NCBI GenBank assembly: GCA_934120315.1
Contig: CAKOTX010000001.1
Coordinates: 7,850 to 39,849 of the forward strand
Direction: 5' to 3'
From: an uncultured Clostridia bacterium
GTDB lineage: Bacteria; Bacillota; Clostridia; TANB77; CAG-508
DNA length: 32,000 nt
Under the pieces are notes generated by a model that was not told the DNA's origin, did no database searches, and saw nothing but the letters and a program-made list of their open reading frames with translations. The translations under genes and the position numbers were made by a program. Position 1 is the stretch's first letter. The number at the start of each line of letters is the position of its first letter. Below, piece by piece: positions 1 to 12,251 of this stretch.

Positions 1-98
1 ATTGCAAGCATTAGATATAAAACTTGTCTTAAACTTAAATAACCACCAAAAATCTTTTCTTCTCGTTTAATATCAAATGGAATTTTAAATATTCTCAC
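1..98 (-). CDS. PrgI-family (VirB3-like) conjugation membrane protein; N-terminal fragment running off the window
   Basis: GTG at 98-96 lies 6 nt after an AGGTGA SD. Translation is (M)RIFKIPFDIKREEKIFGGYLSLRQVLYLMLA, matching my recollection of PrgI-type N-termini (FGG-L-LRQ motif). It lies directly downstream of the Maff2-like gene, as in Firmicute conjugation modules. Confidence 0.5.
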   Translation of the reverse strand, partial: MRIFKIPFDIKREEKIFGGYLSLRQVLYLMLA

Positions 99-108
99 AA
101 TAAATCAC

Positions 109-490
109 CTAACTTCCAAGCAATGTGCCACTATTATTTGTAGCAACATTGATAATAATTCCAGCAATGATGAGTGAAGCACCTAAAATTACACCGCCAC
201 CACATATCCAGGCAAGTGCACCAATACTTTCAGCCCTTTTTTGTGGGTTATTTGAATTGGCTATCATTTTTAATGCTGCAACAACTACACTAGCAAAGAT
301 TAAAACACCGACCTAATGGCATTGCAATACTTGTGATAACTCTTTTAATATTATCTGTTGCAGTTTGCACTTCAGCTGTTCCAATACTTTCAGCAAAACA
401 TTGATTACTTTTTATTAATAACAATGTGAGTGTTGTTCCAATGCTTGATAATTTTGTAATAAATTTCTTTTTTCTTTTTGTAGCATTCAT
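109..490 (-). pseudogene. Maff2 / TrbC-VirB2-like small secreted two-TM protein, interrupted by a 1-nt frameshift near 310
   Basis: ORF 490-290 gives a signal peptide plus ...ITSIAMPLG. The +1 frame continues VLIFASVVVAALKMIANSNNPQKRAESIGALAWICGGGVILGASLIIAGIIINVATNNSGTLLGS to a TAG at 111-109. The joined product has signal peptide, TM, charged loop and TM, the same layout as the 105-aa protein at 18754-19071. Confidence 0.5.
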
Positions 491-541
491 AAAATATCAT
501 CTCCTTAACTTTAAGATAGGGCAAATTAAGAAGAACACTAT

Positions 542-790
542 TTATATTAAATTTTTAAATTGTACCAAAATGTAAGGTAGAAAAAGTAAAAAAATAAGAC
601 TTAATAATAAGCCTGGTACAATTTTTAAAAATTTCGATTTTATTGTTTGTGATTTTATAATACAACCAACTATTAGAAAAATAAGTGATAGTATTAGCAA
701 AATCACAAGTAAAAATAAAGTATATTTAAAGCCATAAAATAAAAAAGTTGACATTATACTTTCAAAATTATTTATATAATTATTTATCAT
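542..790 (-). CDS. Small polytopic membrane protein (82 aa), function unknown
   Basis: ORF track. Two long hydrophobic segments. Tightly spaced inside the minus-strand ICE operon. Confidence 0.45.
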   Translation of the reverse strand: MINNYINNFESIMSTFLFYGFKYTLFLLVILLILSLIFLIVGCIIKSQTIKSKFLKIVPGLLLSLIFLLFLPYILVQFKNLI

Positions 791-804
791 ATTTTAAAGC
801 TCCT

Positions 805-1488
805 TTATGAAGTATCTATATATTTATTTATAATAGATTTTTTATAATAACTAAAAAAATCATCTGTATTATGATCCTTGCATATTGAATACAATTTAAC
901 TAAATTTTCTCTTTCAAATCTATACATAATATTTTTGAAACTACTATTATAAATTAAAAACAAAGTATAAATGATTTCTTTTAATTTTAATAAATTAGAT
1001 TGTTCCATTGTATCTATAATTTTTTTAGGATATATAAATTCAAGTTTTTTTAAATTAGAATAAAATTCTTTTGAAATTTTATTACTATTATTTATAATTA
1101 AAATAAATAAATCATCTATATTATATTTTATATTATTATTGGTGAAATTTTTTTCGTACCCTCCTGTGAAATTATTTTCGTGGGGTGGTGTGAAAATTTT
1201 TTCATACCCTAGTGCATCAGTTAAATATATTTTTCTTTGATAATTATTTTCTATGATTATTTTTATATAGCCTTTTTCTTGTAATTTAGAAATTGTAAAT
1301 TGTATAGCTCGAGGAGTACAATTATATAAGTTTGCAAAATAATTATTTGTAGCAAAACAATATCCTTCTTTATTGCACAAACAAGTAATTTCGCCATATA
1401 ATAGTTTAGCTTTATCTGTTAAGTCTTTATCATATCGGACTGTTGCCGGTATAATAGCATAATAATTACTTTTAATATTTTCATCCAA
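805..1488 (-). CDS. Winged-helix/HTH replication-organizer-like protein of a mobile element (227 aa)
   Basis: The N-terminus YYAIIPATVRYDKDLTDKAKLLYGEITCLCNKEGYCFATNNYFANLYNCTPRAIQFTISKLQEKGYI resembles the HTH domain of phage/ICE replisome-organizer or DnaD-like proteins. An AGGAG-type SD lies upstream. Confidence 0.55.
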   Translation of the reverse strand: MDENIKSNYYAIIPATVRYDKDLTDKAKLLYGEITCLCNKEGYCFATNNYFANLYNCTPRAIQFTISKLQEKGYIKIIIENNYQRKIYLTDALGYEKIFTPPHENNFTGGYEKNFTNNNIKYNIDDLFILIINNSNKISKEFYSNLKKLEFIYPKKIIDTMEQSNLLKLKEIIYTLFLIYNSSFKNIMYRFERENLVKLYSICKDHNTDDFFSYYKKSIINKYIDTS

Positions 1489-1511
1489 AACCTAACTCCT
1501 CTCATAAAAAA

Positions 1512-1604
1512 TTATTCTTCTGACTTTTTTCCAGCCAGTATACAAGCATATAAAAAGAGGCTAAGATTAGCCCCCAATATTAGTCCAATTAAAAATTTTA
1601 GCAT
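1512..1604 (-). CDS. 30-aa hydrophobic peptide MLKFLIGLILGANLSLFLYACILAGKKSEE
   Basis: GGAGGTG SD lies 6 nt before the ATG at 1604. Single TM-like segment with a charged tail. It is the first ORF of the minus-strand ICE operon and is too short for the supplied ORF track. Confidence 0.35.
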   Translation of the reverse strand: MLKFLIGLILGANLSLFLYACILAGKKSEE

Positions 1605-1779
1605 ATACAACACCTCCGTAAAACCGATATTTTGAATTTATATTTTAGTTGGCGCAAATGATTTTTTATGCACCAATTTCAAATAAAAATGCACCAACTT
1701 TTTAAACTTTATCAAATTTATTTAATATTTTTCAAACCTCTTTAAACTATTTTAAATTGTATTTTTTTCTTAAAAAACA

Positions 1780-1808
1780 TTGATTTTTCCTTGAAAGTAC
1801 GGTATAAT
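1780..1808 (+). promoter_or_regulatory. Near-consensus sigma-A promoter TTGATT-17 nt-TATAAT reading toward the tRNA fragment
   Basis: TTGATT at 1780-1785, a 17-nt spacer, TATAAT at 1803-1808. Confidence 0.5.
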
Positions 1809-1859
1809 AAGGAAAATTTAGCTATTCAATATTTATAGAGAGTTACGAGGTGCGTCTTT

Positions 1860-1904
1860 CTCTTAATCTGGCGGTCCTCGGTTCGATTCCGAGATGGTGC
1901 ACCA
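1860..1904 (+). other. 3-prime ~45 nt of a tRNA gene (anticodon loop to CCA) lacking its 5-prime half; probable att-site remnant
   Basis: The sequence reads CTCTTAA (anticodon-loop-like, CTT) TCTGG CGGTC CTCGG-TTCGATT-CCGAG (a perfect T-arm) ATGGTGC A CCA. No complementary 5-prime acceptor strand (GCACCAT), D-arm or 5-prime anticodon stem (CCAGA) occurs upstream. Confidence 0.55.
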
Positions 1905-1914
1905 TTCTTAAGAA

Positions 1915-1947
1915 TATCAGTGTCTTTACGGCATTGGTATTTTTTTA
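1915..1947 (+). terminator. Rho-independent terminator downstream of the tRNA fragment
   Basis: TATCAGTG / CATTGGTA stem (8 bp including 2 G-U pairs), a 9-nt loop, then TTTTTTT. Confidence 0.4.
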
Positions 1948-1962
1948 TGTTATAAAAGCCTC

Positions 1963-1991
1963 TAGACAATTAGAGTAAAATATTTTATAAT
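1963..1991 (+). promoter_or_regulatory. Sigma-A promoter TAGACA-17 nt-TATAAT for the small-peptide mRNA
   Basis: TAGACA at 1963-1968, a 17-nt spacer, TATAAT at 1986-1991. The predicted 5-prime UTR can fold CCTTTC/GAAAGG, which partly covers the SD. Confidence 0.55.
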
Positions 1992-2023
1992 AAAAAAGCC
2001 TTTCGCTTAAAGGTAGAAAGGTG

Positions 2024-2063
2024 GTGAATTTGTACAAATGAAAAAATTTCTTAAATTACTTGC
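2024..2063 (+). repeat. Direct repeat copy 1, covering the SD-proximal region, start codon and first codons of the 22-aa ORF
   Basis: GTGAATTTGTACAAATGAAAAAATTTCTTAAATTACTTGC aligns with copy 2 at 2147-2182, GTGAATCTACACAAATGAATTTCTTAAATTACTAGC. There are identical blocks of 6, 9 and 14 nt. Confidence 0.8.
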
Positions 2064-2106
2064 ATTAATCATTATTCTTAATATATTAAAAGAATTTGAT
2101 GATTAG
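2038..2106 (+). CDS. 22-aa hydrophobic peptide MKKFLKLLALIIILNILKEFDD; candidate type I toxin
   Basis: AAAGGTGGTGA SD upstream of the ATG at 2038, stop TAG at 2104-2106, followed by a strong terminator. Hydrophobic core with an acidic tail. Confidence 0.45.
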   Translation: MKKFLKLLALIIILNILKEFDD

Positions 2107-2107
2107 A

Positions 2108-2147
2108 CAAAAAATAATCCCTAGACTTGCCCTCTAGGGATTTTTTG
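2108..2147. terminator. Bidirectional intrinsic terminator
   Basis: ATCCCTAGA (2117-2125) / TCTAGGGAT (2133-2141) forms a perfect 9-bp stem with a 7-nt loop. An A-run lies upstream and a T-run downstream, so both strands read hairpin plus U-tract. Confidence 0.8.
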
Positions 2148-2182
2148 TGAATCTACACAAATGAATTTCTTAAATTACTAGC
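2147..2182 (+). repeat. Direct repeat copy 2 (template of the antisense RNA)
   Basis: See copy 1. Relative to copy 1 it lacks 4 A residues and has 4 substitutions. Confidence 0.8.
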
Positions 2183-2195
2183 TTAAGCTATATTA

Positions 2196-2224
2196 ATTAT
2201 AATACTTTTTAGTATCATAGTCAA
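2196..2224 (-). promoter_or_regulatory. Consensus sigma-A promoter TTGACT-17 nt-TATAAT on the minus strand
   Basis: The reverse complement of 2219-2224 is TTGACT and of 2196-2201 is TATAAT. The spacer is exactly 17 nt. Confidence 0.65.
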
Positions 2225-2284: not shown

Positions 2285-3487
2285 TTAATCTAACGTACCT
2301 TTAATTTTTACCAATTCCTTTTTTATCGTATTATATGCAGATTGCCCAATTGTCTGATTCTTGCCACTTTCATAATCAGAAATTGACTTTTCTATATCAA
2401 GTATTTTATATCTTCTAACTGTTCCAGTTGCAGATTTATACATATAAATTGGAATATAATCAACTTTATCTATTGTAATTTTTCCTGTCTCACCATTTTT
2501 AGTAATATCTAAATTTAATATAATAGAATTCTTGGTATTTTCTTTTACTTGTCCAGACATGAAATTTCCTAAAGAATATATTACAAATCCATCTTTTGTT
2601 GTTCCATCATCTAATGTTATAGTCCTTTTTTCCATTGGTTGCAATACATGAGGATGACTTCCTAAAATAATATCTACACCATTTTTGAATAATAATTCTG
2701 CTAATTTTTCTTGTTCTTTGTTCTGTTTAGTTTGATATTCTATTCCCCAATGCATACTTGTACAAATTATATCTGGATTCTGTTCTTTTGCTAATTCTAT
2801 TTGTTTTAATATAAGTTCTTCATTTATTAGATTTACTGAATATTCTTTTCCTGATGGAATTGGAATTCCATTAGTTCCGTATGTGAATGATAGAAATGCT
2901 ATCTTTATTCCGTTTATCTCTTTTACCAACACAGTTCCTTGCTCTTCTGGAGATCTACTTGTTCCTGTATGTGCAATTCCAGCAGAATCTAAATAATCTA
3001 ATGTACTTACTATTCCCTTGTATCCTTTATCTATACAATGATTATTAGCTGTTGATACAACATCTATTCCTAAATCTTTTAAATTTTCTGCTAGCTCTTC
3101 TGGTGTATTAAAAGTAGGATAACTACTATATCCTCTCTCTTTTCCTGCAAATGTTGTCTCTAAATTTCCTATTGCTAAATCTGCTGTACTAATATATTCT
3201 TTTATATCATCAAATACATAAGAAAAATCATAGTTTCCTGAATTTGCTTGATATGCATCATTATATTGTGTATTATGACACATTATATCTCCTATAACAG
3301 TCATTTTCATTTTAGAATTCTCTTTAGGCTCTTCTTTTATATTTGCTTCAGGTTCATTTTGTACTTCTTCTGTTTTGCTTTCTTCTATTGTATTTTCATT
3401 TTCTTTGTTTATCTTTTTATCATAGATAAATAATGCTGTACATACAATTATTGCAATTAAAATAAAAACTTTAAAAACTTTTTTCAT
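2285..3487 (-). CDS. CapA-family (poly-gamma-glutamate capsule synthesis-like metallophosphatase) membrane-anchored protein
   Basis: N-terminal TM anchor followed by MTVIGDIMCH...NLETT...STANNHCIDKG...GSHPHVLQP, motifs typical of the CapA/PGA_cap family. Confidence 0.7.
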   Translation of the reverse strand: MKKVFKVFILIAIIVCTALFIYDKKINKENENTIEESKTEEVQNEPEANIKEEPKENSKMKMTVIGDIMCHNTQYNDAYQANSGNYDFSYVFDDIKEYISTADLAIGNLETTFAGKERGYSSYPTFNTPEELAENLKDLGIDVVSTANNHCIDKGYKGIVSTLDYLDSAGIAHTGTSRSPEEQGTVLVKEINGIKIAFLSFTYGTNGIPIPSGKEYSVNLINEELILKQIELAKEQNPDIICTSMHWGIEYQTKQNKEQEKLAELLFKNGVDIILGSHPHVLQPMEKRTITLDDGTTKDGFVIYSLGNFMSGQVKENTKNSIILNLDITKNGETGKITIDKVDYIPIYMYKSATGTVRRYKILDIEKSISDYESGKNQTIGQSAYNTIKKELVKIKGTLD

Positions 3488-3573: not shown

Positions 3574-6500
3574 CTATGATTTTTTAGATTTCTTTATGTC
3601 TTTTCTTATAAACCATGTTCCTATAAGTATAACTACTGCACCTACTAAACCTGTTATTATATAAGATGTCATATATGTTGTAGTTCCTGTTGGTGGTGTT
3701 ATTACTATTCTTACTCTGTCATCATCTTGTTGATGTTCACTGCTTAGTGTAGGAATGTAATTACCTGGTTGATATTCTTTATCTACTTGTTTTCCATTAT
3801 TAGATTCTTTTATTGTTCTTGCAATTCTTCCATCTAATTCTAGAATTTCAGTATGATTATCAAATACATAGCTTTCTTCTTGGTTTGCTAATTCTCTTCT
3901 TGCATATAATATACTTGTCTTTGTTCCACCATTTGGTTCTACATTTGCGAATGTATTTGTAACAAATAATTGTTGTTCTCTTTCTCCTACTGTTTTTTCA
4001 ACTTCTTCTGCTACATGTCCATTATTCTTTAATGTTGTTGCTGTTATTAAAGTTGTTCCATCATTTTGATATTTATACCATTCGTCATTGTTATTTTCTC
4101 CAGCTGGTGCTTCATTACCAACTCCGCATATTAGTTTTGATGTCATATAATCTGCAACTAAGTTTACTGATTTTTTTATTATATCTAATCCAGAATTATC
4201 ACCATATAAGTAATATTGTGTTCCTTGTGCATAATCATAATCAATTTCGCTATAGTTTGTTACTGTAATTGCATACCATACTTCTAGGTTTGCTCCTTGT
4301 AATAATTCTTGGTCAATTTCTATTGATAGTAATCTATCTAATGTTTGATATGTTGCTCTTTCTCCTACTGCAATTCCAGGTGCTTTAACATAATTTATTT
4401 TTTCTGATCTTGGATCTCCATTTATAAGAACTTGACCATTTGCTAATGTTACTTTAATTTTAGCTATTGTTTTGTTTATTACAATATTTTCTCTTGGTCT
4501 TTCTATAATACCAAAGTCAAATACGTCTAGGCCACTTGTAATTCCTGTATTACCATCTTGATCTACTTGTGATGATGTATTTTCTGTAAATTCTACTTGT
4601 AATTCAAATGGTTTACTATCTGCATTCATATTTATTTTATCATTATAAGTGCTATATTTTAAATTATCAATTTTTAGTCTTTCATTTATATCATCTGCTG
4701 CTACTGAAATTCCTCTTGATAATTTATTTGATAAATGCCATTTTGTATTTACTTCATTTTCTTTCATCATATTAGCGATTAATTCATTTGTAATTATTGT
4801 TGATTTGAAGTTTCTAGCATTTACAAAAGTATTTCCTCCATCTAATGTTGTTCTTATTTGATCTCCATTACCATAAGTATATTCAATTATGTATTTGTCT
4901 ACAACTAATCCCATACTTGATGAATTTCCTATTGTGAAGTTACCATTTGAATCTGTAAATGCTGATGCATCAGCAGTATAAGCTTGACCATTTTGTATGT
5001 AATATAATTGCGCTTCTTTTAGATTTCCATCATTATCAACTGTATATAATTTAGCTTTTACATTTTGAACGCCTTTTTCATTGTTGTCCTTCTTTCCGTT
5101 TCCTAATCTTTCTGCATCTCCAGTATTTGCATCTTTATCTTCCCATACATTTCCTGATATTGTTTTATATACTTTCTTTAAGCATAGTACAAATGATGGT
5201 GCTATATCTGTATCATCTTGTAGATTTCTTACATCTAATCTACTATTTGATGAATCATAATATACTCCTGCATTTCCTGGTTGTGAGTCAACATCAATAC
5301 CTGCATAATTATATCCTGTTTTTCCTATAGAACCTGCTGTTTTTATTCCTGCACATAATGTGTTATCACCATATTGTGTTGAATATTCATAAATTTCAAC
5401 TACATTATTTAATGTTGCATCTTGTCTTATTAAATCTCTTATTGCTGCTGTACTTATATCATATGTTACAAATGTTTCTGCAGAACCTCCTACATCCATT
5501 CTCAAGTTCAAATCTCCTGAAATTGATTGTGTATATGTTCCATTTGATCCATAATTTGACCATCCACTAGAAACTACTGTATATCTTGAATCACTATATG
5601 TTACTAATCTATGTACTGTTGTTCCTAATGTATTTGATTGATTTTTTACTACAAATCTATATGTTATTTGTACTCTTAAATCATCTTTATTTGCGTCATT
5701 TTTATTTACATATGCAACGTCTGCTGGGTTTATTTCTCTACTATATTTATATGTATATTTATTTTGGAATTTAACTGTTGCATCAAATGTGTTTGGATCA
5801 TCAGTTTGTATTCCTTTATTTCCATATATATATGTATATTCTTGTCCCTTCATAGTTACTTTTACATTAGCTATATCTGATGATATTGCTATGTCTGGTT
5901 GTTCTCTTTCAAACAATCCTAAGTTAACATTATCTATTACTAGTTTTGTTACTGTAGTACTTTGTAGTACATGTCCTCCACAGAATGTTCTGTGATCAAA
6001 TTTTTGTTCCCAGCTAACTGGTTTTGAATAATCATATTCCCAATCATCTGCAACTCCATATTTGTTCCATGATTTTGGTTTTGAATAATCTTTTTGCCAT
6101 CCATTAGGTCTATCATAATCATTTACATAGTGATCTGTTGGATGTGCATAATGGATTTCGTCATGAGTTGTTGTCCAGTGTGAATCTTGATTTGAATATG
6201 TATATGTTGTTTCTACATTATCTTGAGTTTTTAAAACTGCTCCACTACCATGGCAATATACTATTGGTACACTTTCTTTTACATAGCTTTGATATGGATA
6301 ACTTCTAAAATTGTAAATTACATTTCTTGTATCTGCTCTTAATGTTCCACTTGTACTTGACCATGGATTAATACGTGTTCTTGCATTATCAAATGAAATT
6401 CTCTCATTTTCATTTTCCATTGCTTTAGATGTATCTGTACCATATGGAGATGTATTAACTGTTGTATATTTTACTCCATCATATTCAAAGTCTACATATG

Positions 6501-7443
6501 CTCCGCTATATAATTTATTTATAACAGTCTCATAATCTTCATAAAGTTGGAATACTACATTGCTCTTATAATTTACTTTAATTGTATAATTTCCACTACC
6601 ATCTGTATATGCACTAGATCCTCCTGCAAATTCGCTTCCGCCACTATCTCTTAATGTTACTTTTATACCACCTAAGCCTTTATCTCCACTGCCTAATTTT
6701 CCATCTATTACGTTACTTTTTCCAGCTGCTCCGTCTACCCAAACTTTACCTTTTATTTCAATCCATCCATCAACTGTTTGTTCTGGTGGTGGTGTTGGTA
6801 CATCTGGATTATCTTTTCCATCAGCTGAAACAGCTCTTGGAACTGCAATTAATAAGTTTTGTACATTTGAATGTGATATACATTTTAACATATATATATC
6901 TACTCCACATTTCTTTGTACTTGCATAGTTAGCTGCAACTTGTGCATAATAACTTGCTTGTGAACCTATACCTTTTTTTGCACTATGGTTTAATCCACCT
7001 AAAGAAGATAATCCATATTGACTTCCTACTGCACTTACCCAAGTATCCCAATAAACATATAATGCTTGTTGTGCTTGTCCATAGTTATTTCCTGATGCTG
7101 TATATTTACCATAACCTTTTGATAATGGTCCATTTAATATTGCTGCTAATGTAGCATTTGCATCACTCTTAACTTCTGCTCCTGCATCATTTTTAGATGA
7201 TTTTCCTTCAATTTGCACATGATATACAATTTTAAATGTTGCTGGTACATTTCTTCCTCCTGTTATGTTAAAAAAGCCTTGACTATGTGCTATACAATAA
7301 ATATCCCCTGCTGCTGACATTGAATTTTCTGATATTGAAAGTACATCTCCAACTGAATATGCATCAGCTTTATTATTCATAAATATCAATGAACCAATCA
7401 TTATTAAAATGAATGCTAGCATTAATTTTATTTTCTTATTCAT
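3574..7443 (-). CDS. Giant cell-surface protein (1289 aa): signal peptide, possible thioester-like N-domain, Cna-B/SdrD-B-like and pilin-like beta-sandwich domains, C-terminal sorting-signal-like anchor
   Basis: Signal peptide MNKKIKLMLAFILIMIGSLIFMNNKADA. SdrD-B-like segment GNVWEDKDANTGDAE...TDSNGNFTI. C-terminus TPPTG plus a hydrophobic stretch plus RKDIKKSKKS. An AGGAGG SD overlaps the upstream stop. Confidence 0.75.
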   Translation of the reverse strand: MNKKIKLMLAFILIMIGSLIFMNNKADAYSVGDVLSISENSMSAAGDIYCIAHSQGFFNITGGRNVPATFKIVYHVQIEGKSSKNDAGAEVKSDANATLAAILNGPLSKGYGKYTASGNNYGQAQQALYVYWDTWVSAVGSQYGLSSLGGLNHSAKKGIGSQASYYAQVAANYASTKKCGVDIYMLKCISHSNVQNLLIAVPRAVSADGKDNPDVPTPPPEQTVDGWIEIKGKVWVDGAAGKSNVIDGKLGSGDKGLGGIKVTLRDSGGSEFAGGSSAYTDGSGNYTIKVNYKSNVVFQLYEDYETVINKLYSGAYVDFEYDGVKYTTVNTSPYGTDTSKAMENENERISFDNARTRINPWSSTSGTLRADTRNVIYNFRSYPYQSYVKESVPIVYCHGSGAVLKTQDNVETTYTYSNQDSHWTTTHDEIHYAHPTDHYVNDYDRPNGWQKDYSKPKSWNKYGVADDWEYDYSKPVSWEQKFDHRTFCGGHVLQSTTVTKLVIDNVNLGLFEREQPDIAISSDIANVKVTMKGQEYTYIYGNKGIQTDDPNTFDATVKFQNKYTYKYSREINPADVAYVNKNDANKDDLRVQITYRFVVKNQSNTLGTTVHRLVTYSDSRYTVVSSGWSNYGSNGTYTQSISGDLNLRMDVGGSAETFVTYDISTAAIRDLIRQDATLNNVVEIYEYSTQYGDNTLCAGIKTAGSIGKTGYNYAGIDVDSQPGNAGVYYDSSNSRLDVRNLQDDTDIAPSFVLCLKKVYKTISGNVWEDKDANTGDAERLGNGKKDNNEKGVQNVKAKLYTVDNDGNLKEAQLYYIQNGQAYTADASAFTDSNGNFTIGNSSSMGLVVDKYIIEYTYGNGDQIRTTLDGGNTFVNARNFKSTIITNELIANMMKENEVNTKWHLSNKLSRGISVAADDINERLKIDNLKYSTYNDKINMNADSKPFELQVEFTENTSSQVDQDGNTGITSGLDVFDFGIIERPRENIVINKTIAKIKVTLANGQVLINGDPRSEKINYVKAPGIAVGERATYQTLDRLLSIEIDQELLQGANLEVWYAITVTNYSEIDYDYAQGTQYYLYGDNSGLDIIKKSVNLVADYMTSKLICGVGNEAPAGENNNDEWYKYQNDGTTLITATTLKNNGHVAEEVEKTVGEREQQLFVTNTFANVEPNGGTKTSILYARRELANQEESYVFDNHTEILELDGRIARTIKESNNGKQVDKEYQPGNYIPTLSSEHQQDDDRVRIVITPPTGTTTYMTSYIITGLVGAVVILIGTWFIRKDIKKSKKS

Positions 7444-7448
7444 ACAGA

Positions 7449-10400
7449 TTACCTCCTTTCCTTTTTAATATTTATGATATTATTTTTTATCATTAATTTA
7501 ATTGCTACTGCTATTAATATAGTATTAATAATTGCTAATATAACGTACATTAAAATTGTTCCACCTGTTGATACTGCTATGATAACATCTGCAGAACCCA
7601 TATCATTTTCTGAAGCTACATTATTATTTGGTGTTGAGTTTACATCTGCTATTCCATATTCGTTATATGCATCATAAATTTCTGCTCTATTATTTACTAC
7701 ACCTGTATTTTCTGTTGTCATTGTTTTTGTTAAGATTAACTTAACTTCTTTTGTTTCTCCTGGATTTATAGGTTCATTTGCTAATTTCTTTGTGTATAAG
7801 TTTCCATTTGAAATATACCAATCTGGATTTAGCTCTGAACTAAATGTTAATCCATTTGTTAAGTAATCTACTATGTTGCTTACAAATCCTGCTATTTCTC
7901 CATTGTTTTTAACTTTTATAGTATATTCTAATACTACCAATGCTCCATCCATTTCTTTAGATTTTATTTCAGGTTTTGCAAGTACAGCGTCATTATAATC
8001 ATATGATTTTGTTCCGCTCTTACTTTGAATTGATACTTTTGTAATATATTTGTTCAATTCTAAATCAAATATATATTTATCTTTTAAACCAATATTTATG
8101 TTGGATATGTTATCTTGTAAATTAATTGTATCTGTTACTGCGTATGTTTTTTCTTCTCCATCAATTGTAATTGTTTTTAATATTGCTTTTGAATTTATAC
8201 TATCATCTACGCCTTCTTGCATATAGTATGTTGGTTCGTATTTACTTGTATCATATTCAAATAATACTATATAATTTCCATTTGGAATTTTTGTAAATGA
8301 ATATTCTCCTTTATCATTTGTTGTTGTTTCAATAATGTTTCCATTAGTATCTTTTAAATAGTTTGATGTAGAAATATCATATATTCTTACTTTTACACCA
8401 CTTAGCAATTGTTCTGTTGCATCTTTTTGACCATTTCTATCTGAATCTACCCATGCAACACCATTTATCATATTTTTAATATCTCCAACATAATATCCTC
8501 TTAATATATGAGTAACTGTTTGAGATGTGCCTTTGTGAACATCTGCAATTTCAATATCAACATAATTTGATATAGTCTTAACATCAAATTCTTCTGTTAT
8601 TGGTTTTACTTTTGCTTTTATTATAATTTTTGATTCATTATTTGCTAAAACTTGTACACTATATCTAATTTCATTTGATATAGATGCTGTATAAGTATCT
8701 TTATTATTTACTGAATCTGTTGTTTGGAATACTGTTTCACCATTTACAATAAATTCTTCTATTGCTAAATATTCTGGTACATTATCAATTACTGTTATAT
8801 ATTCATCACTTATTCCTTTATTAGAAACTGTTATATTGTATTGAACTTCGTCTCCAACTTTAATATATGCTTTATCTTGAGGACTTGTTAATGAAACTGT
8901 TGCCTCTGTTGTTAATACATTTTCTTCAAATTTATTTGATCTGTATGTATTATTAGAATTGTCTTTTACTTTTGCTATAACACTTACATTGTTTACATCT
9001 TTATCAATTTGAACTGCAACTAAGAATATTACTGAACTATTTCCTGATAATTCTTTAATTTCCATTGCATCTGTTGCTAATTTTACATTAAAATCTCCAT
9101 CTAAGAAACTTGTTGTTGTTAAATGGTCATATATCATTTCAATGCTTAAATCTTTAACTGTTTCACTTGATAAGTTTTCTACAATAACATTGTATTGTGT
9201 ATCTGCTCCTGCATATAAATCTTTGCTTAAGTCTATTGCTCTTTTTACTGTTACTCTTATATTTGAATTTTCAGATTTATTAATTATTTGTGAACTTTCT
9301 TTTACTGTTTCTCCACATTTTGCTGTTACTTTATTTGCTATATTATCTGTAGCTGATTTTACTCTAACTTCATATTCAAATGTATATGTTTCGTTAGAAT
9401 TCAATTTTTCGATGTTTTTAACTATTTGTTTAACATCTTCTTTTTCTGTGTAATAAGAAGTTCCTGAATATACATATCCTTCTTCTGGTTCAACATAAAC
9501 TGTTCCTTCTGGAACTAATGCTTGTGCTTCAACATTTGTTATTGGTTGTAATCCAGTATTTTTTACTGTTACTGTATATTTTATTACTTCTCCTACTTTT
9601 ACTGTAGCATTATTACTTACATCGTCATTTCCAACAGTTGCTTTTAATGTTGTTTCAATTTTTACTTCAGATTGTGTTTGTAAACCAATTTTTATAGAAC
9701 TTACTTCTACATTTTTTTCTGTATCTGTATCATATAAAACTTTGTAATCTGTAAAAGATTGTTTATCTTTTAATAATTGATTTGGTAATTGTGAAATATA
9801 AGAGATTTCATAATTACTTTCTACTGGCAATTCTGATAATTTTATTAAATATTTTCTTGCATTAGAAACTTCATTTAAATTTGTTTTCCATCCATTTGAT
9901 GAATTATCAACATTTTCTGTTGCATCTGCATTTTCTGTATAATATATTGTTGCATTCTCTGCATTCATAGATTTTAATTTTGTTGTTAATGTATTTTCAA
10001 CATTATCATATTTATTTCCATCTGTTGGTAATATTCCTAAAATTCTTACATTCTTTAAGTTAGCTCCTGTACTGTTTATTAAATAAGAATTGAATTCTAG
10101 ATTTTTTCCAGCATCACTATTTGCAACTTGTGCAATTTGTGTTTCTTCATTAATTCCACTTATTCCTTCTATATTATAAGTTGGTAAATTATTTACTGTT
10201 ACTAATCCACTTGGTGCAGCAATACTAATTTCTTTTTCAACTACACCTTTATCTGTAGTTCCACCATAGTATTCTGTTGCATTTTCGTTTGTGTATTCCA
10301 TAACAATTTTATCTTTTTTAGCTGCTGCCATTTTTGATAATGTTATATCTAAGTTAAGTTGTAAATATGCTTGTGTTGCTGATGTTTCTGAATAATCTAA

Positions 10401-12251
10401 TTGTTCTCCATTTAATGTCATTGTTATTGTCTTATTTGTGTTATTATAAGATGTTTTAACTTTAAATTCTTCTGCATATAAAGAACTTGTTTCACCATTC
10501 ATTTTTACACTTTCAACTACTGATGGTAATTGAATTTTTATTACTGGATTATTAAATAAATCATATCTTACATCATCTGTTCTTAATTTAATTCCAAGTA
10601 CAACATTTGAATTTGTTGCCATTGTAGATAATGTATCTGTACTTACAGTTAATTCTGCTTTTGAAACTGTTCCATTAATTTTTAATGTTGCTTCACTTGA
10701 ATTTTCTACAATTGCTGTTTCTTCTTCATTTATTGTAGCAATTCCTTTTACTGTACTTTCTGTTTTTATACCATTTATTGACTCGATTTGAGTTGCTGTA
10801 AATGATCCTGGTATTATTGCTTTTGCATATTTAAATTCTAACACTCCTGCTTTTTGTGGTTTACTTGTTGTAATTGTTAATTCACTTCTTGCTGCTTCAT
10901 AACTTACAACAATATTTCCATTTTCATCAACTTTTGTATCTTTGTTGATTGTTGTTGTTACTTCACCATTTTTTAATTCTATAGTACCATCTTGTCCTAA
11001 AATATCTAACATTTTATCTTTATTAATTGTTGTAGTTAAATATTTTGTATCAACTGACATGTCTTTTGATTCTGTTGTTAATTTATCTGAACCTTCTGTT
11101 ACTACAACTTTTTCTGGTATATTAGAATTTGTTATAATTATTTTGTTTTCTGTATTATATGTTACATCTGCAGTTGAATTTAATTGTCCTTTAAATAATT
11201 CTTCTGATGTCATTTTTGTAGATGTTGTTATTAAAGCATTTGGTTCTTGATTTTCTATACCTTTCATATATTTCGCTGTATATTTTGTAGCTGAATTATG
11301 AACTGTAATTTCTGAATTTGTTGTGATTTCTACTTTATTAGCATCTACATCTGAAGCATATATAAATGTTACAATTAATTCATCATATGCATTTTTATTC
11401 CATTTAATTGTTTTATCTTCATTTTTTAATGTTATTGTTAAATTTCCATCATTGTTTGTCCAATCTTTATCAGTTAACTCGTTTCCACCATTTGTTGCCA
11501 TTGTTCCTAAAGATAATACTTCTATTTTTTCTGGTAATTTATCACTTAATTTTGGAGCACTTACACTTATTGTTGTTTCTTTAATTGGATATTGATTATC
11601 TGATAATCTTGAATTTATTTTTAATTGAACAACTCTTTTTTCTGTTCCTTCTATATTAAATACTTTATTTGTAATAATGTCTGTTGTTAATTCAGCAGCA
11701 GCATTTGAGTCTGCTTGTAAATTCAAACTTACTGCTTGACTTCCTTTAATACTTAACCCTTTATATGATGTTTCCATATATTTTCCTGTTAATTTTAAGT
11801 CAGAAGCCTTAACTAACATATCTGCATCTAATGTATCTGTTATAATTGGTTCAATATTTAATTCAATTATAGCATTATCTCCTGCATTAATTTGTTTTAA
11901 TTTTACTTTGTTTCCATCTATGCTTTCTACCCATTTTGATGAAATATCCTTTTTCAAATTAAAGTTACTATTTTGTAATTCTAATTCTCCATTAAAATAT
12001 CCATCATTTCTTACTGAAATTTCAGCATACATTTTTAAATTTTCATTTTTAATACTTGCTGTTAAATTTTCAACTTTTTCATCTTTTTCATTTTTAAAAT
12101 ATGCAGAAAAACTTATATTTTTATTATTAGTTGTACTATTTGTTTCTGCTGCATAACTTATTAAGTTTGACCCTAACACGAAAAAGTCTGTTGACATTAC
12201 CATTAGTATCATTAAAATTGCTAATAATTTTTTTAACACTCTTTTCTCCAT
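7449..12251 (-). CDS. Giant cell-surface protein (1600 aa) with DUF11-like repeats, an SdrD-B-like domain and a C-terminal anchor
   Basis: Signal peptide. Repeats of the TVKNTGLQPITNVEAQALVPEGTVYV type. SdrD-B-like segment INGVAWVDSDRNGQKDATEQLLSGVKVRIYD...TNDKGEYSFTKIPNGNYIV. C-terminus AVSTGG plus TM plus KNNIINIKKERR. GGAGGG SD before the ATG. Confidence 0.75.
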   Translation of the reverse strand: MEKRVLKKLLAILMILMVMSTDFFVLGSNLISYAAETNSTTNNKNISFSAYFKNEKDEKVENLTASIKNENLKMYAEISVRNDGYFNGELELQNSNFNLKKDISSKWVESIDGNKVKLKQINAGDNAIIELNIEPIITDTLDADMLVKASDLKLTGKYMETSYKGLSIKGSQAVSLNLQADSNAAAELTTDIITNKVFNIEGTEKRVVQLKINSRLSDNQYPIKETTISVSAPKLSDKLPEKIEVLSLGTMATNGGNELTDKDWTNNDGNLTITLKNEDKTIKWNKNAYDELIVTFIYASDVDANKVEITTNSEITVHNSATKYTAKYMKGIENQEPNALITTSTKMTSEELFKGQLNSTADVTYNTENKIIITNSNIPEKVVVTEGSDKLTTESKDMSVDTKYLTTTINKDKMLDILGQDGTIELKNGEVTTTINKDTKVDENGNIVVSYEAARSELTITTSKPQKAGVLEFKYAKAIIPGSFTATQIESINGIKTESTVKGIATINEEETAIVENSSEATLKINGTVSKAELTVSTDTLSTMATNSNVVLGIKLRTDDVRYDLFNNPVIKIQLPSVVESVKMNGETSSLYAEEFKVKTSYNNTNKTITMTLNGEQLDYSETSATQAYLQLNLDITLSKMAAAKKDKIVMEYTNENATEYYGGTTDKGVVEKEISIAAPSGLVTVNNLPTYNIEGISGINEETQIAQVANSDAGKNLEFNSYLINSTGANLKNVRILGILPTDGNKYDNVENTLTTKLKSMNAENATIYYTENADATENVDNSSNGWKTNLNEVSNARKYLIKLSELPVESNYEISYISQLPNQLLKDKQSFTDYKVLYDTDTEKNVEVSSIKIGLQTQSEVKIETTLKATVGNDDVSNNATVKVGEVIKYTVTVKNTGLQPITNVEAQALVPEGTVYVEPEEGYVYSGTSYYTEKEDVKQIVKNIEKLNSNETYTFEYEVRVKSATDNIANKVTAKCGETVKESSQIINKSENSNIRVTVKRAIDLSKDLYAGADTQYNVIVENLSSETVKDLSIEMIYDHLTTTSFLDGDFNVKLATDAMEIKELSGNSSVIFLVAVQIDKDVNNVSVIAKVKDNSNNTYRSNKFEENVLTTEATVSLTSPQDKAYIKVGDEVQYNITVSNKGISDEYITVIDNVPEYLAIEEFIVNGETVFQTTDSVNNKDTYTASISNEIRYSVQVLANNESKIIIKAKVKPITEEFDVKTISNYVDIEIADVHKGTSQTVTHILRGYYVGDIKNMINGVAWVDSDRNGQKDATEQLLSGVKVRIYDISTSNYLKDTNGNIIETTTNDKGEYSFTKIPNGNYIVLFEYDTSKYEPTYYMQEGVDDSINSKAILKTITIDGEEKTYAVTDTINLQDNISNINIGLKDKYIFDLELNKYITKVSIQSKSGTKSYDYNDAVLAKPEIKSKEMDGALVVLEYTIKVKNNGEIAGFVSNIVDYLTNGLTFSSELNPDWYISNGNLYTKKLANEPINPGETKEVKLILTKTMTTENTGVVNNRAEIYDAYNEYGIADVNSTPNNNVASENDMGSADVIIAVSTGGTILMYVILAIINTILIAVAIKLMIKNNIINIKKERR

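Follow-up and report, generated by a model that had tools for sequence, protein, structure and literature searches.

A par-like convergent RNA cassette beside tRNA-Lys(CTT) in uncultured gut Clostridia: a probable type I toxin-antitoxin module with a 22-residue peptide

INTRODUCTION

Does a pair of short convergent genes lying beside the end of an integrative and conjugative element (ICE) constitute a toxin-antitoxin module, and does it belong to that element? The question is raised by a cassette of ~260 bases in a DNA stretch of 32,000 nucleotides (nt) from an uncultured Clostridia bacterium (GenBank assembly GCA_934120315.1, contig CAKOTX010000001.1, positions 7,850 to 39,849), referred to as the window, in which coordinates are counted unless another contig is named. 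One gene of the cassette encodes a hydrophobic peptide of 22 codons, and the other encodes a small RNA. An earlier note on this DNA had likened the pair to the par/Fst type I toxin-antitoxin loci and had suggested that it could act as an addiction module of the adjacent ICE. Loci of the par type carry convergent promoters, a bidirectional terminator, the direct repeats DRa and DRb over the translation initiation region, and a 5′ stem-loop over the Shine-Dalgarno (SD) sequence (PMC7472228); features of the family are also described in PMC8594479. Here we report that the cassette is probably a type I toxin-antitoxin module working like pAD1 par and that it does not belong to the ICE.

RESULTS

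Architecture of the cassette

The cassette and its immediate surroundings are laid out in Table 1. The copy in the window is of a type that we call module A, for which 11 distinct A-type haplotypes were compared; a diverged paralogue, module B, is described below. Two promoters that score at least 11/12 and have a 17-nt spacer are rarely expected in the 1.2 kb between 1500 and 2700 (mean of 0.044 in dinucleotide shuffles; P = 0.001 for two or more), and the convergent promoter pair is kept in all cassette copies compared. The promoter hexamers, both arms of the terminator stem, and the small-RNA body (2147-2189) were free of changes among the 11 A-type haplotypes. The hexamers of the peptide promoter are unchanged in module B as well, and A and B do not differ at all in the region of the small-RNA promoter (2190-2224).

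Table 1. Coordinates of the cassette and of the adjoining tRNA-Lys(CTT) sequence in the window
Feature	Position	Strand	Basis or remark
3′ 45 nt of tRNA-Lys(CTT), anticodon loop to CCA	1860..1904	+	Alignment with empty sites L002, L005, L007
tRNA terminator, hairpin and T-run downstream of tRNA	1910..1944	+	
Peptide-mRNA promoter, TAGACA-17-TATAAT	1963..1991	+	Promoter scan, score 11/12
Predicted peptide mRNA, ~150 nt	1998..2148	+	Start inferred from −10 element, 3′ end from terminator T-run
5′ stem-loop, GCCUUUC with GAAAGGU, covering part of SD	1998..2022	+	Predicted minimum free energy and centroid structures
SD sequence AAAGGTGG	2017..2024	+	13 nt upstream of ATG
Repeat block a, mRNA side (helix 1)	2024..2042	+	Identical in modules A and B
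22-codon open reading frame encoding MKKFLKLLALIIILNILKEFDD, plus stop codon	2038..2106	+	Open reading frame translation
Repeat block b, mRNA side (helix 2), codons 4-8	2047..2060	+	Putative specificity-determining segment
Predicted antisense small RNA, ~82 nt	2108..2189	-	Ends inferred
Shared bidirectional intrinsic terminator, 10-bp stem and 7-nt loop	2116..2142	both	Terminator scan
Second repeat copy, predicted target-binding part of small RNA	2147..2182	+, transcribed from minus strand	
Small-RNA promoter, TTGACT-17-TATAAT	2224-2196	-	Promoter scan, score 11/12

An A-run and a T-run bound the terminator on opposite sides, and its loops in the mRNA and in the small RNA are complementary to each other; four terminator-like sites were observed, where 0.2 would be expected by chance. 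The direct repeat on the two sides of this terminator (2024-2063 and 2147-2182) was recovered by the repeat finder as two pairs of halves, 2024-2042/2147-2165 and 2045-2063/2164-2182. Its second copy equals the first minus four A's, with exact blocks of 6, 9, and 14 nt, and the best same-strand self-alignment of 1940-2245 scored 43, compared with 23.4 ± 3.3 in shuffled sequences (z = 5.9).

Both predicted transcripts fold more stably than their shuffled counterparts. The minimum free energy (MFE) was −36 kcal/mol for the mRNA (1998-2149; z = −3.6) and −20.4 kcal/mol for the 82-nt small RNA (z = −2.9). The mRNA structure contains the leader fold over part of the SD that had been suggested previously, and its pairing survives two variants, G>A at 1998 in module B and A>G at 2018, the latter being the single polymorphism of the SD. 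Every element listed in the earlier note was thus found in its place and above chance expectation, and the par/Fst-like architecture that it had proposed is borne out by convergent promoters, a common bidirectional terminator, and direct repeats with antisense complementarity outside the overlap.

Two further observations were made between the SD and the start codon (2025-2041). A 12-nt palindrome, ATTTGTACAAAT, lies at 2028-2039 and is missing from the second repeat copy. The same spacer holds a possible mini-open reading frame of three codons, TTG-TAC-AAA-TGA (2030-2041), whose stop codon overlaps the ATG (ATGA) and which might couple its translation to that of the peptide.

Pairing between the small RNA and the mRNA in two paralogous modules

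The two genes are read in opposite directions across the two-block direct repeat, and this gives the small RNA complementarity to the start region of the peptide mRNA. With positions counted on the mRNA from the A of AUG, helix 1 comprises 19 continuous pairs from −14 to +5, three of which are G·U, and helix 2 extends from +10 to +23. The contiguous matches of 6, 9, and 14 nt reported in the earlier note were found again, with one refinement: the three mismatches between the repeat copies in helix 1 (T/C, G/A, and T/C) become G·U wobbles in the RNA duplex. When the 5′ parts of the mRNA and the small RNA were analyzed with RNAduplex, the cognate pairs yielded −37.2 kcal/mol for module A and −35.8 kcal/mol for module B. 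Shuffling the small RNA reduced this to −12.9 ± 2.8 kcal/mol (z of about −8.7 for the native A duplex), and the two noncognate A/B combinations gave −27.1 and −26.6 kcal/mol.

Modules A and B occur in tandem on contig L108, in the order tRNA-Lys, module A, tRNA-Lys, module B, and the same module B is present on L101. The two are 84% identical, and their differences are strongly clustered, which gives the comparison a mosaic appearance. Differences amount to 0-9% in both promoters, the leader, the SD, and the first 19 nt of both repeat copies, to 31% in codons 5-17 of the open reading frame (ORF), to 67% in the 5′ part of the small RNA, and to 71% (5/7 positions) in the terminator loop. Divergence is thus concentrated in the apolar core of the peptide and at the contact determinants of the RNAs (the terminator loop, helix 2, and the small-RNA segment that matches helix 2), and the promoters, leader, SD, and helix 1 are nearly identical.

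Covariation of the repeat copies in homologous loci had been set in advance as a test of the toxin-antitoxin proposal. In helix 2, positions +13, +19, +21, and +22 differ between A and B, and for each of the four the cognate small RNA has changed to the complementary base; another position changed on one side only, to a wobble, and no pair is broken from +11 to +23. The top pair of the terminator stem is likewise compensated, being A-U in A and U-A in B. These data indicated that the complementarity between the small RNA and the mRNA is kept by compensatory change. Could gene conversion within a module produce the same picture? Each module has the same three fixed differences between its repeat copies, and their persistence in both paralogues argues that intramodule conversion is not keeping the copies alike, so that maintenance of pairing by selection appears to be the simpler explanation.

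A third arrangement was found on contig L106 (244-590), in which an A-type promoter, ORF, and terminator are combined with a B-type helix 2 (5′) part of the small RNA. This hybrid looks like the product of a deletion between tandem A and B modules within an identical stretch of 25 nt. It is either a real recombinant that tolerates a duplex of −27 kcal/mol or an assembly chimera across the 25-nt identity.

The second of the tandem tRNA-Lys(CTT) genes on L108 (3037-3112) scored 50 bits against the Rfam tRNA model, compared with 68 bits for the first, and has an altered 3′ acceptor strand; it may be a decaying duplicate.

Conservation of the peptide

The peptide of module B, MKKFIKIIALVIVLLILKEFDN, equals that of module A in length (22 amino acids [aa]) and in the position of its stop codon. 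Both consist of a basic N terminus (MKK), an apolar core of 14 residues, and an acidic tail, KEFDD in A or KEFDN in B, and the mean Kyte-Doolittle hydropathy of the core is 2.7 in A and 3.3 in B. A hydrophobic helix followed by a charged C-terminal tail, the arrangement of Fst and Ldr toxins, is thus present, with a core shorter than that of Fst.

From A to B, the peptide underwent seven replacements (three L>I, two I>V, one N>L at residue 15, and one D>N), all of which are conservative except N15L. To estimate how readily such an outcome arises, the same 14 nucleotide substitutions were placed at random in ORF A, and the frame stayed open with a BLOSUM62 score at least as good in only 5.5 × 10−5 of the trials. 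Within the A type, the only changes found in the ORF among the 11 haplotypes were GAA>GAG, GAT>GAC, and TAG>TAA, all three silent (P = 0.006). The ORF conservation on which the earlier note had made its proposal depend was therefore observed at both levels, and these patterns indicated that the 22-codon ORF is under constraint at the protein level.

Neither peptide contains proline or glycine, and hence neither has a PXXXG motif. Searches of Pfam and NCBIfam with peptides A and B at an E value of ≤10 matched no family, in agreement with the previous judgment that the peptide is not of the Fst type, and a full-text literature search with either peptide sequence found no paper.

A sequence link to another conserved gene was also noticed. 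Between ileS and queA/tgt lies the gene for a 147-aa protein that has RRWKEN-type repeats (native gene at 3001-3444 on L114); the C terminus of this protein reads ...AEKMKKFLKCN in 104 of 120 homologues. The 3′ end of this gene shares 21 identical nt, AAATGAAAAAATTTCTTAAAT, with the 5′ end of the peptide gene. On two independent contigs (L107, 725-1210, and the contig encoding protein P0018), the 147-aa protein is fused in frame to the full 22-aa peptide, and the terminator and small-RNA gene follow the fused ORF. These fusions may be real recombinants, k-mer assembly chimeras, or a clue to the origin of the ORF. The 3′ end of the 147-aa gene was considered as a trans target of the small RNA and was rejected, the predicted duplex (−13.3 kcal/mol) being within the range of shuffled sequences (−10.5 ± 2.7 kcal/mol).

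Chromosomal setting of the cassette

The junction between the ICE and the chromosome was placed at 1859/1860, inside the anticodon loop of tRNA-Lys(CTT) and ~100 nt from the cassette, with ICE DNA to the left; when occupied and empty sites were aligned, identity stopped within this loop. ARAGORN, run on the window, called no tRNA at 1860-1904. The conjugative element within the window (1-1904) includes an HTH_36 gene (805-1488) and a DUF3789 gene (1512-1613), and type IV secretion system genes are found further into the element on contig L001. On its other side, the cassette adjoins a gene on the minus strand (2285-3487) for a CapA-like protein of 400 aa with a PGA_cap domain.

A look-up of contigs encoding exactly this 400-aa protein returned ten human-gut metagenome contigs. 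Four of them (L001, L003, L004, and L006) share the layout of the window, with a conjugative element that bears HTH_36, PrgI, TraG-like, and TrbL-like genes. Three others (L002, L005, and L007) are free of the ICE and have an intact tRNA-Lys(CTT) directly upstream of the same cassette. The position of the junction within the tRNA, together with these ICE-free carriers, places the cassette on the chromosomal side. Thus, the comparison indicated that the cassette is independent of the ICE and is not its cargo, which corrects the annotation of this genome region. Homology among cassette copies in different flanks starts at the T-run of the tRNA terminator hairpin.

The same tRNA site has received another element elsewhere. 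A second tRNA-Lys copy, located downstream of the cassette on contigs L102 (6455-8120) and L096 (~1050-1210), is cut at the same anticodon-loop position, with CAGACTCT before the cut and GACTCTTGTAGG after it, and is followed by tRNA-Gln(CTG), a tyrosine integrase gene, and a gene for an Xis-like helix-turn-helix protein. Since a different element used the identical site in L096 and L102, the locus is a hotspot for integrative elements.

The window also carries two very large surface-protein genes (3574-12251), adjacent to the CapA-like gene. The 1600-aa product has CLIPPER and SdrD_B domains; the 1289-aa product has no confident domain and ends in TPPTG and a transmembrane tail. In L003, L004, and L007-L010, an insertion sequence with an rve transposase lies between the 1289-aa and CapA-like genes.

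Distribution of the cassette

For a wider survey, the CapA-like protein was compared with one genome per GTDB species, which yielded 80 loci from metagenome-assembled genomes of uncultured gut and rumen Clostridia. These loci were searched by BLASTN, by nhmmer with a profile of A and B, and for small ORFs that start with MKK and two hydrophobic residues. Seventy-nine of the 80 lacked the cassette beside the CapA-like gene, one (L025) had a partial copy, and no further diverged copies were found. In L026, L031, and L035, the CapA-like/tRNA-Lys synteny is kept and the intergenic spacer is short and unrelated, and L034 retains a remnant of only 40 nt.

The partial copy in L025 (3120-3441), whose CapA-like protein is 61% identical to that of the window, proved informative. 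Its terminator, small-RNA gene, and small-RNA promoter are 97% identical to those of the cassette and directly follow the tRNA, and the peptide gene has lost its promoter, leader, and ORF by deletion. Placed directly after tRNA-Lys, the bidirectional terminator would double as the terminator of the tRNA. On the far side of the small-RNA promoter, a decayed version of the leader and start region is present; its SD is poor, and it encodes MKKFLFVLKTLNLHP and overlaps the end of the CapA-like gene. An ORF without a small-RNA gene was not seen among the loci, and loss of the peptide gene with retention of the small RNA fits the logic of toxin-antitoxin decay.

When metagenome contigs were scanned for the pattern of the repeat core, 12 true cassettes were recovered, all from human-gut samples, along with three chance matches. 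On the left, the cassette is flanked by the tRNA-Lys terminator or by the end of an unrelated small gene; on the right, it is flanked by the CapA-like gene, the end of an LPXTG-type surface-protein gene, or a second tRNA-Lys(CTT). BLASTN against PLSDB plasmids and GenBank phages gave short chance matches only, pattern scans of IMG/VR viral contigs gave chance matches or nothing, and the window contains no second copy. Related proteins in the databases are labeled Clostridium sp. CAG:356.

DISCUSSION

Proposed mechanism

The par layout described in PMC7472228 and PMC8594479 is matched by this cassette, and we propose the same regulatory logic for it. A strong promoter would direct synthesis of an mRNA of ~150 nt for the 22-residue hydrophobic peptide, and a near-consensus promoter facing it would yield a small RNA of ~82 nt, ending at the bidirectional terminator that both transcripts use. 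A first, kissing contact could be made by the complementary terminator loops, and from there the small RNA would zip helices 1 and 2 over −14 to +23, a segment that extends from the ribosome landing site through the AUG to the eighth codon. The two helices would occlude the ribosome-binding window, and the 5′ stem-loop of the mRNA would hold part of the SD until the small RNA is bound, delaying translation of the nascent mRNA. Peptide synthesis would be blocked as long as the small RNA is produced. In this scheme we infer transcription of both genes, translational repression by the small RNA, a toxic action of the peptide on the membrane, and unequal stability of the two RNAs.

A bolder idea concerns the role of the locus as a whole. 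The tRNA-Lys(CTT) gene and the peptide/small-RNA module could form a unit that duplicates itself at an integration hotspot, its tandem paralogues having diverged at the RNA contacts and in the peptide core, and the module might guard the hotspot or compete with incoming elements instead of stabilizing one of them. We hold this to be speculative and on balance unlikely; if true, it would provide a case in which natural selection has made two coresident antitoxins orthogonal.

Strength of the toxin-antitoxin assignment and alternative explanations

Several findings weigh against a toxin-antitoxin module of the par type. For efficient initiation, 13 nt between SD and AUG is a long spacing. With 22 aa and ~14 residues in its apolar span, the peptide is short; it also has no PXXXG motif and matches no toxin family. 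Since helix 1 is common to A and B, the noncognate duplexes remain strong, which makes discrimination between the paralogues uncertain. The covariation comes from one A/B comparison, only two diverged module types having been found. In the hybrid contig L106, the duplex predicted with its own mRNA drops to −27 from −37 kcal/mol, and if this contig is real, helix 2 is not essential. The distribution across species is, as described above, very narrow.

Some of these points would suit a small membrane protein with a benign role, for example, in transporter or envelope modulation, whose level is tuned by the antisense RNA. We regard this as an unlikely explanation, although it would account equally well for all of the computational evidence, including the coding constraint and the covariation, and it is favored by a peptide below the 27-60 aa typical of Gram-positive type I toxins and without a toxin signature, as well as by the mismatched small RNA beside an intact ORF in L106. 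The complete par-like layout, however, has so far been described for toxin loci, and the loss of the ORF in L025 with the small RNA retained follows toxin-antitoxin decay logic. Moreover, tandem duplication with diversified pairing determinants is typical of type I toxin-antitoxin paralogues. It is more doubtful still that the small RNA acts mainly in trans on other targets, with the adjacent ORF being one target among them or incidental. The small-RNA gene that L025 keeps at 97% identity without the upstream ORF would be in line with this, and so would the 21-nt identity between the 5′ end of the peptide gene and the 3′ end of the 147-aa gene, but in each paralogue the variable 5′ segment of this RNA changes in step with the ORF beside it, which points to the cis-encoded mRNA as the selected target.

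An addiction or stabilization function for the adjacent ICE, which the earlier note had suggested, is very unlikely. In its favor, the cassette lies ~100 nt from the junction, at a tRNA-Lys site used by at least two integrative elements. This suggestion did not hold, because the same cassette stands beside an intact tRNA in the ICE-free contigs L002, L005, and L007 and occurs in other flanking contexts as well; the junction inside the tRNA leaves it on the chromosomal side, and searches of IMG/VR viral contigs, PLSDB plasmids, and GenBank phages did not recover it. Just as implausible is nonfunctional debris, that is, a partial tandem duplication or an old att-site arm in which promoter- and terminator-like sites arose by chance. 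The region is AT rich, with promoter-like sites of 9/12 no commoner than in shuffled sequences, and it is prone to recombination, as the rearranged L025, L106, and L107 illustrate. Debris would nevertheless have to account for two promoters of 11/12 (P = 0.001), the repeat (z = 5.9), silent-only ORF polymorphisms, the A/B protein conservation (P = 5.5 × 10−5), compensatory changes in helix 2 and in the terminator, and three repeat-copy differences that are the same in A and B and thus speak against gene conversion. A par-like toxin-antitoxin module consequently remains the reading that we favor.

If this reading is correct, the par-type architecture gains a type I family with a very short peptide unrelated to Fst and extends to an uncultured, small-genome lineage of gut Clostridia, for which, to our knowledge, almost no RNA regulators have been described. 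The A/B paralogue pair and the hybrid contig with an A toxin and a B antitoxin would offer a ready-made design for finding the contacts that set antitoxin specificity. For specialists, the family itself would be a solid, unsurprising addition; tRNA-linked tandem paralogues that diverged at their RNA contacts are of greater interest.

Comparison with known systems

Among known systems, the closest in layout is par of pAD1 from Enterococcus faecalis (Fst, RNA I/RNA II), the type to which SprA1/SprA1as of Staphylococcus aureus also belongs. Shared with it are the convergent promoters, a small RNA encoded on the 3′ side that overlaps the mRNA only at a common bidirectional intrinsic terminator, two direct-repeat blocks (DRa/DRb) that pair over the translation initiation region outside this overlap, complementary terminator loops, a 5′ stem-loop over the SD (predicted here), and a small hydrophobic peptide with a charged C-terminal tail. 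In contrast to par/Fst, the peptide has 22 aa instead of about 27-35 aa, lacks the PXXXG(C) motif, and matches neither the Fst families of Pfam and NCBIfam nor an Rfam antitoxin family, and the predicted MFE structure of the mRNA has no long-range upstream 5′ helix. Candidate U-turns (YUNR) are present as CUUG in the loop of the A mRNA and UUCG in the loop of the B small RNA, a 4-nt motif being expected by chance, and not every par homologue has one (PMC7472228). The setting differs as well: the host is an uncultured gut Clostridia lineage, and the cassette is linked to tRNA-Lys(CTT) and duplicated together with it.

When the whole window was searched against Rfam at gathering thresholds, it returned tRNAs only and no antitoxin or small-RNA family. 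The antitoxin families of Rfam (RNA II/Fst antitoxin, SprA1as, RatA, Sib, Sok, and others) had no match in the locus at an E value of ≤10 or in module B at ≤1. As far as these searches indicate, the locus is outside the Fst toxin family and every Rfam antitoxin family.

Two other systems bear a more partial resemblance. The Ibs/Sib modules of Escherichia coli also combine a very short hydrophobic peptide (18-19 aa in Ibs) with paralogous copies; several paralogues exist, and discrete variable segments of the antisense RNA set cognate specificity. They differ in that Sib RNAs overlap the whole ORF as full antisense RNAs, direct repeats and a shared terminator are absent, and the host is Gram negative. 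The type I modules of Clostridioides difficile (CD2517.1-RCd8 and others) share with this cassette a Clostridia host, convergent toxin and antitoxin genes, small membrane peptides with charged C termini, and a location in regions rich in mobile elements. Their toxins, however, have 34-59 aa and lysine-rich tails without sequence similarity to the peptide described here, and their antitoxins pair with the toxin mRNA through a long direct overlap, compared with the repeat-mediated pairing of this cassette. Taken together, these comparisons suggest that the cassette probably represents a new type I toxin-antitoxin family of narrow distribution, in which an RNA architecture of the par type serves an unrelated, shorter peptide.

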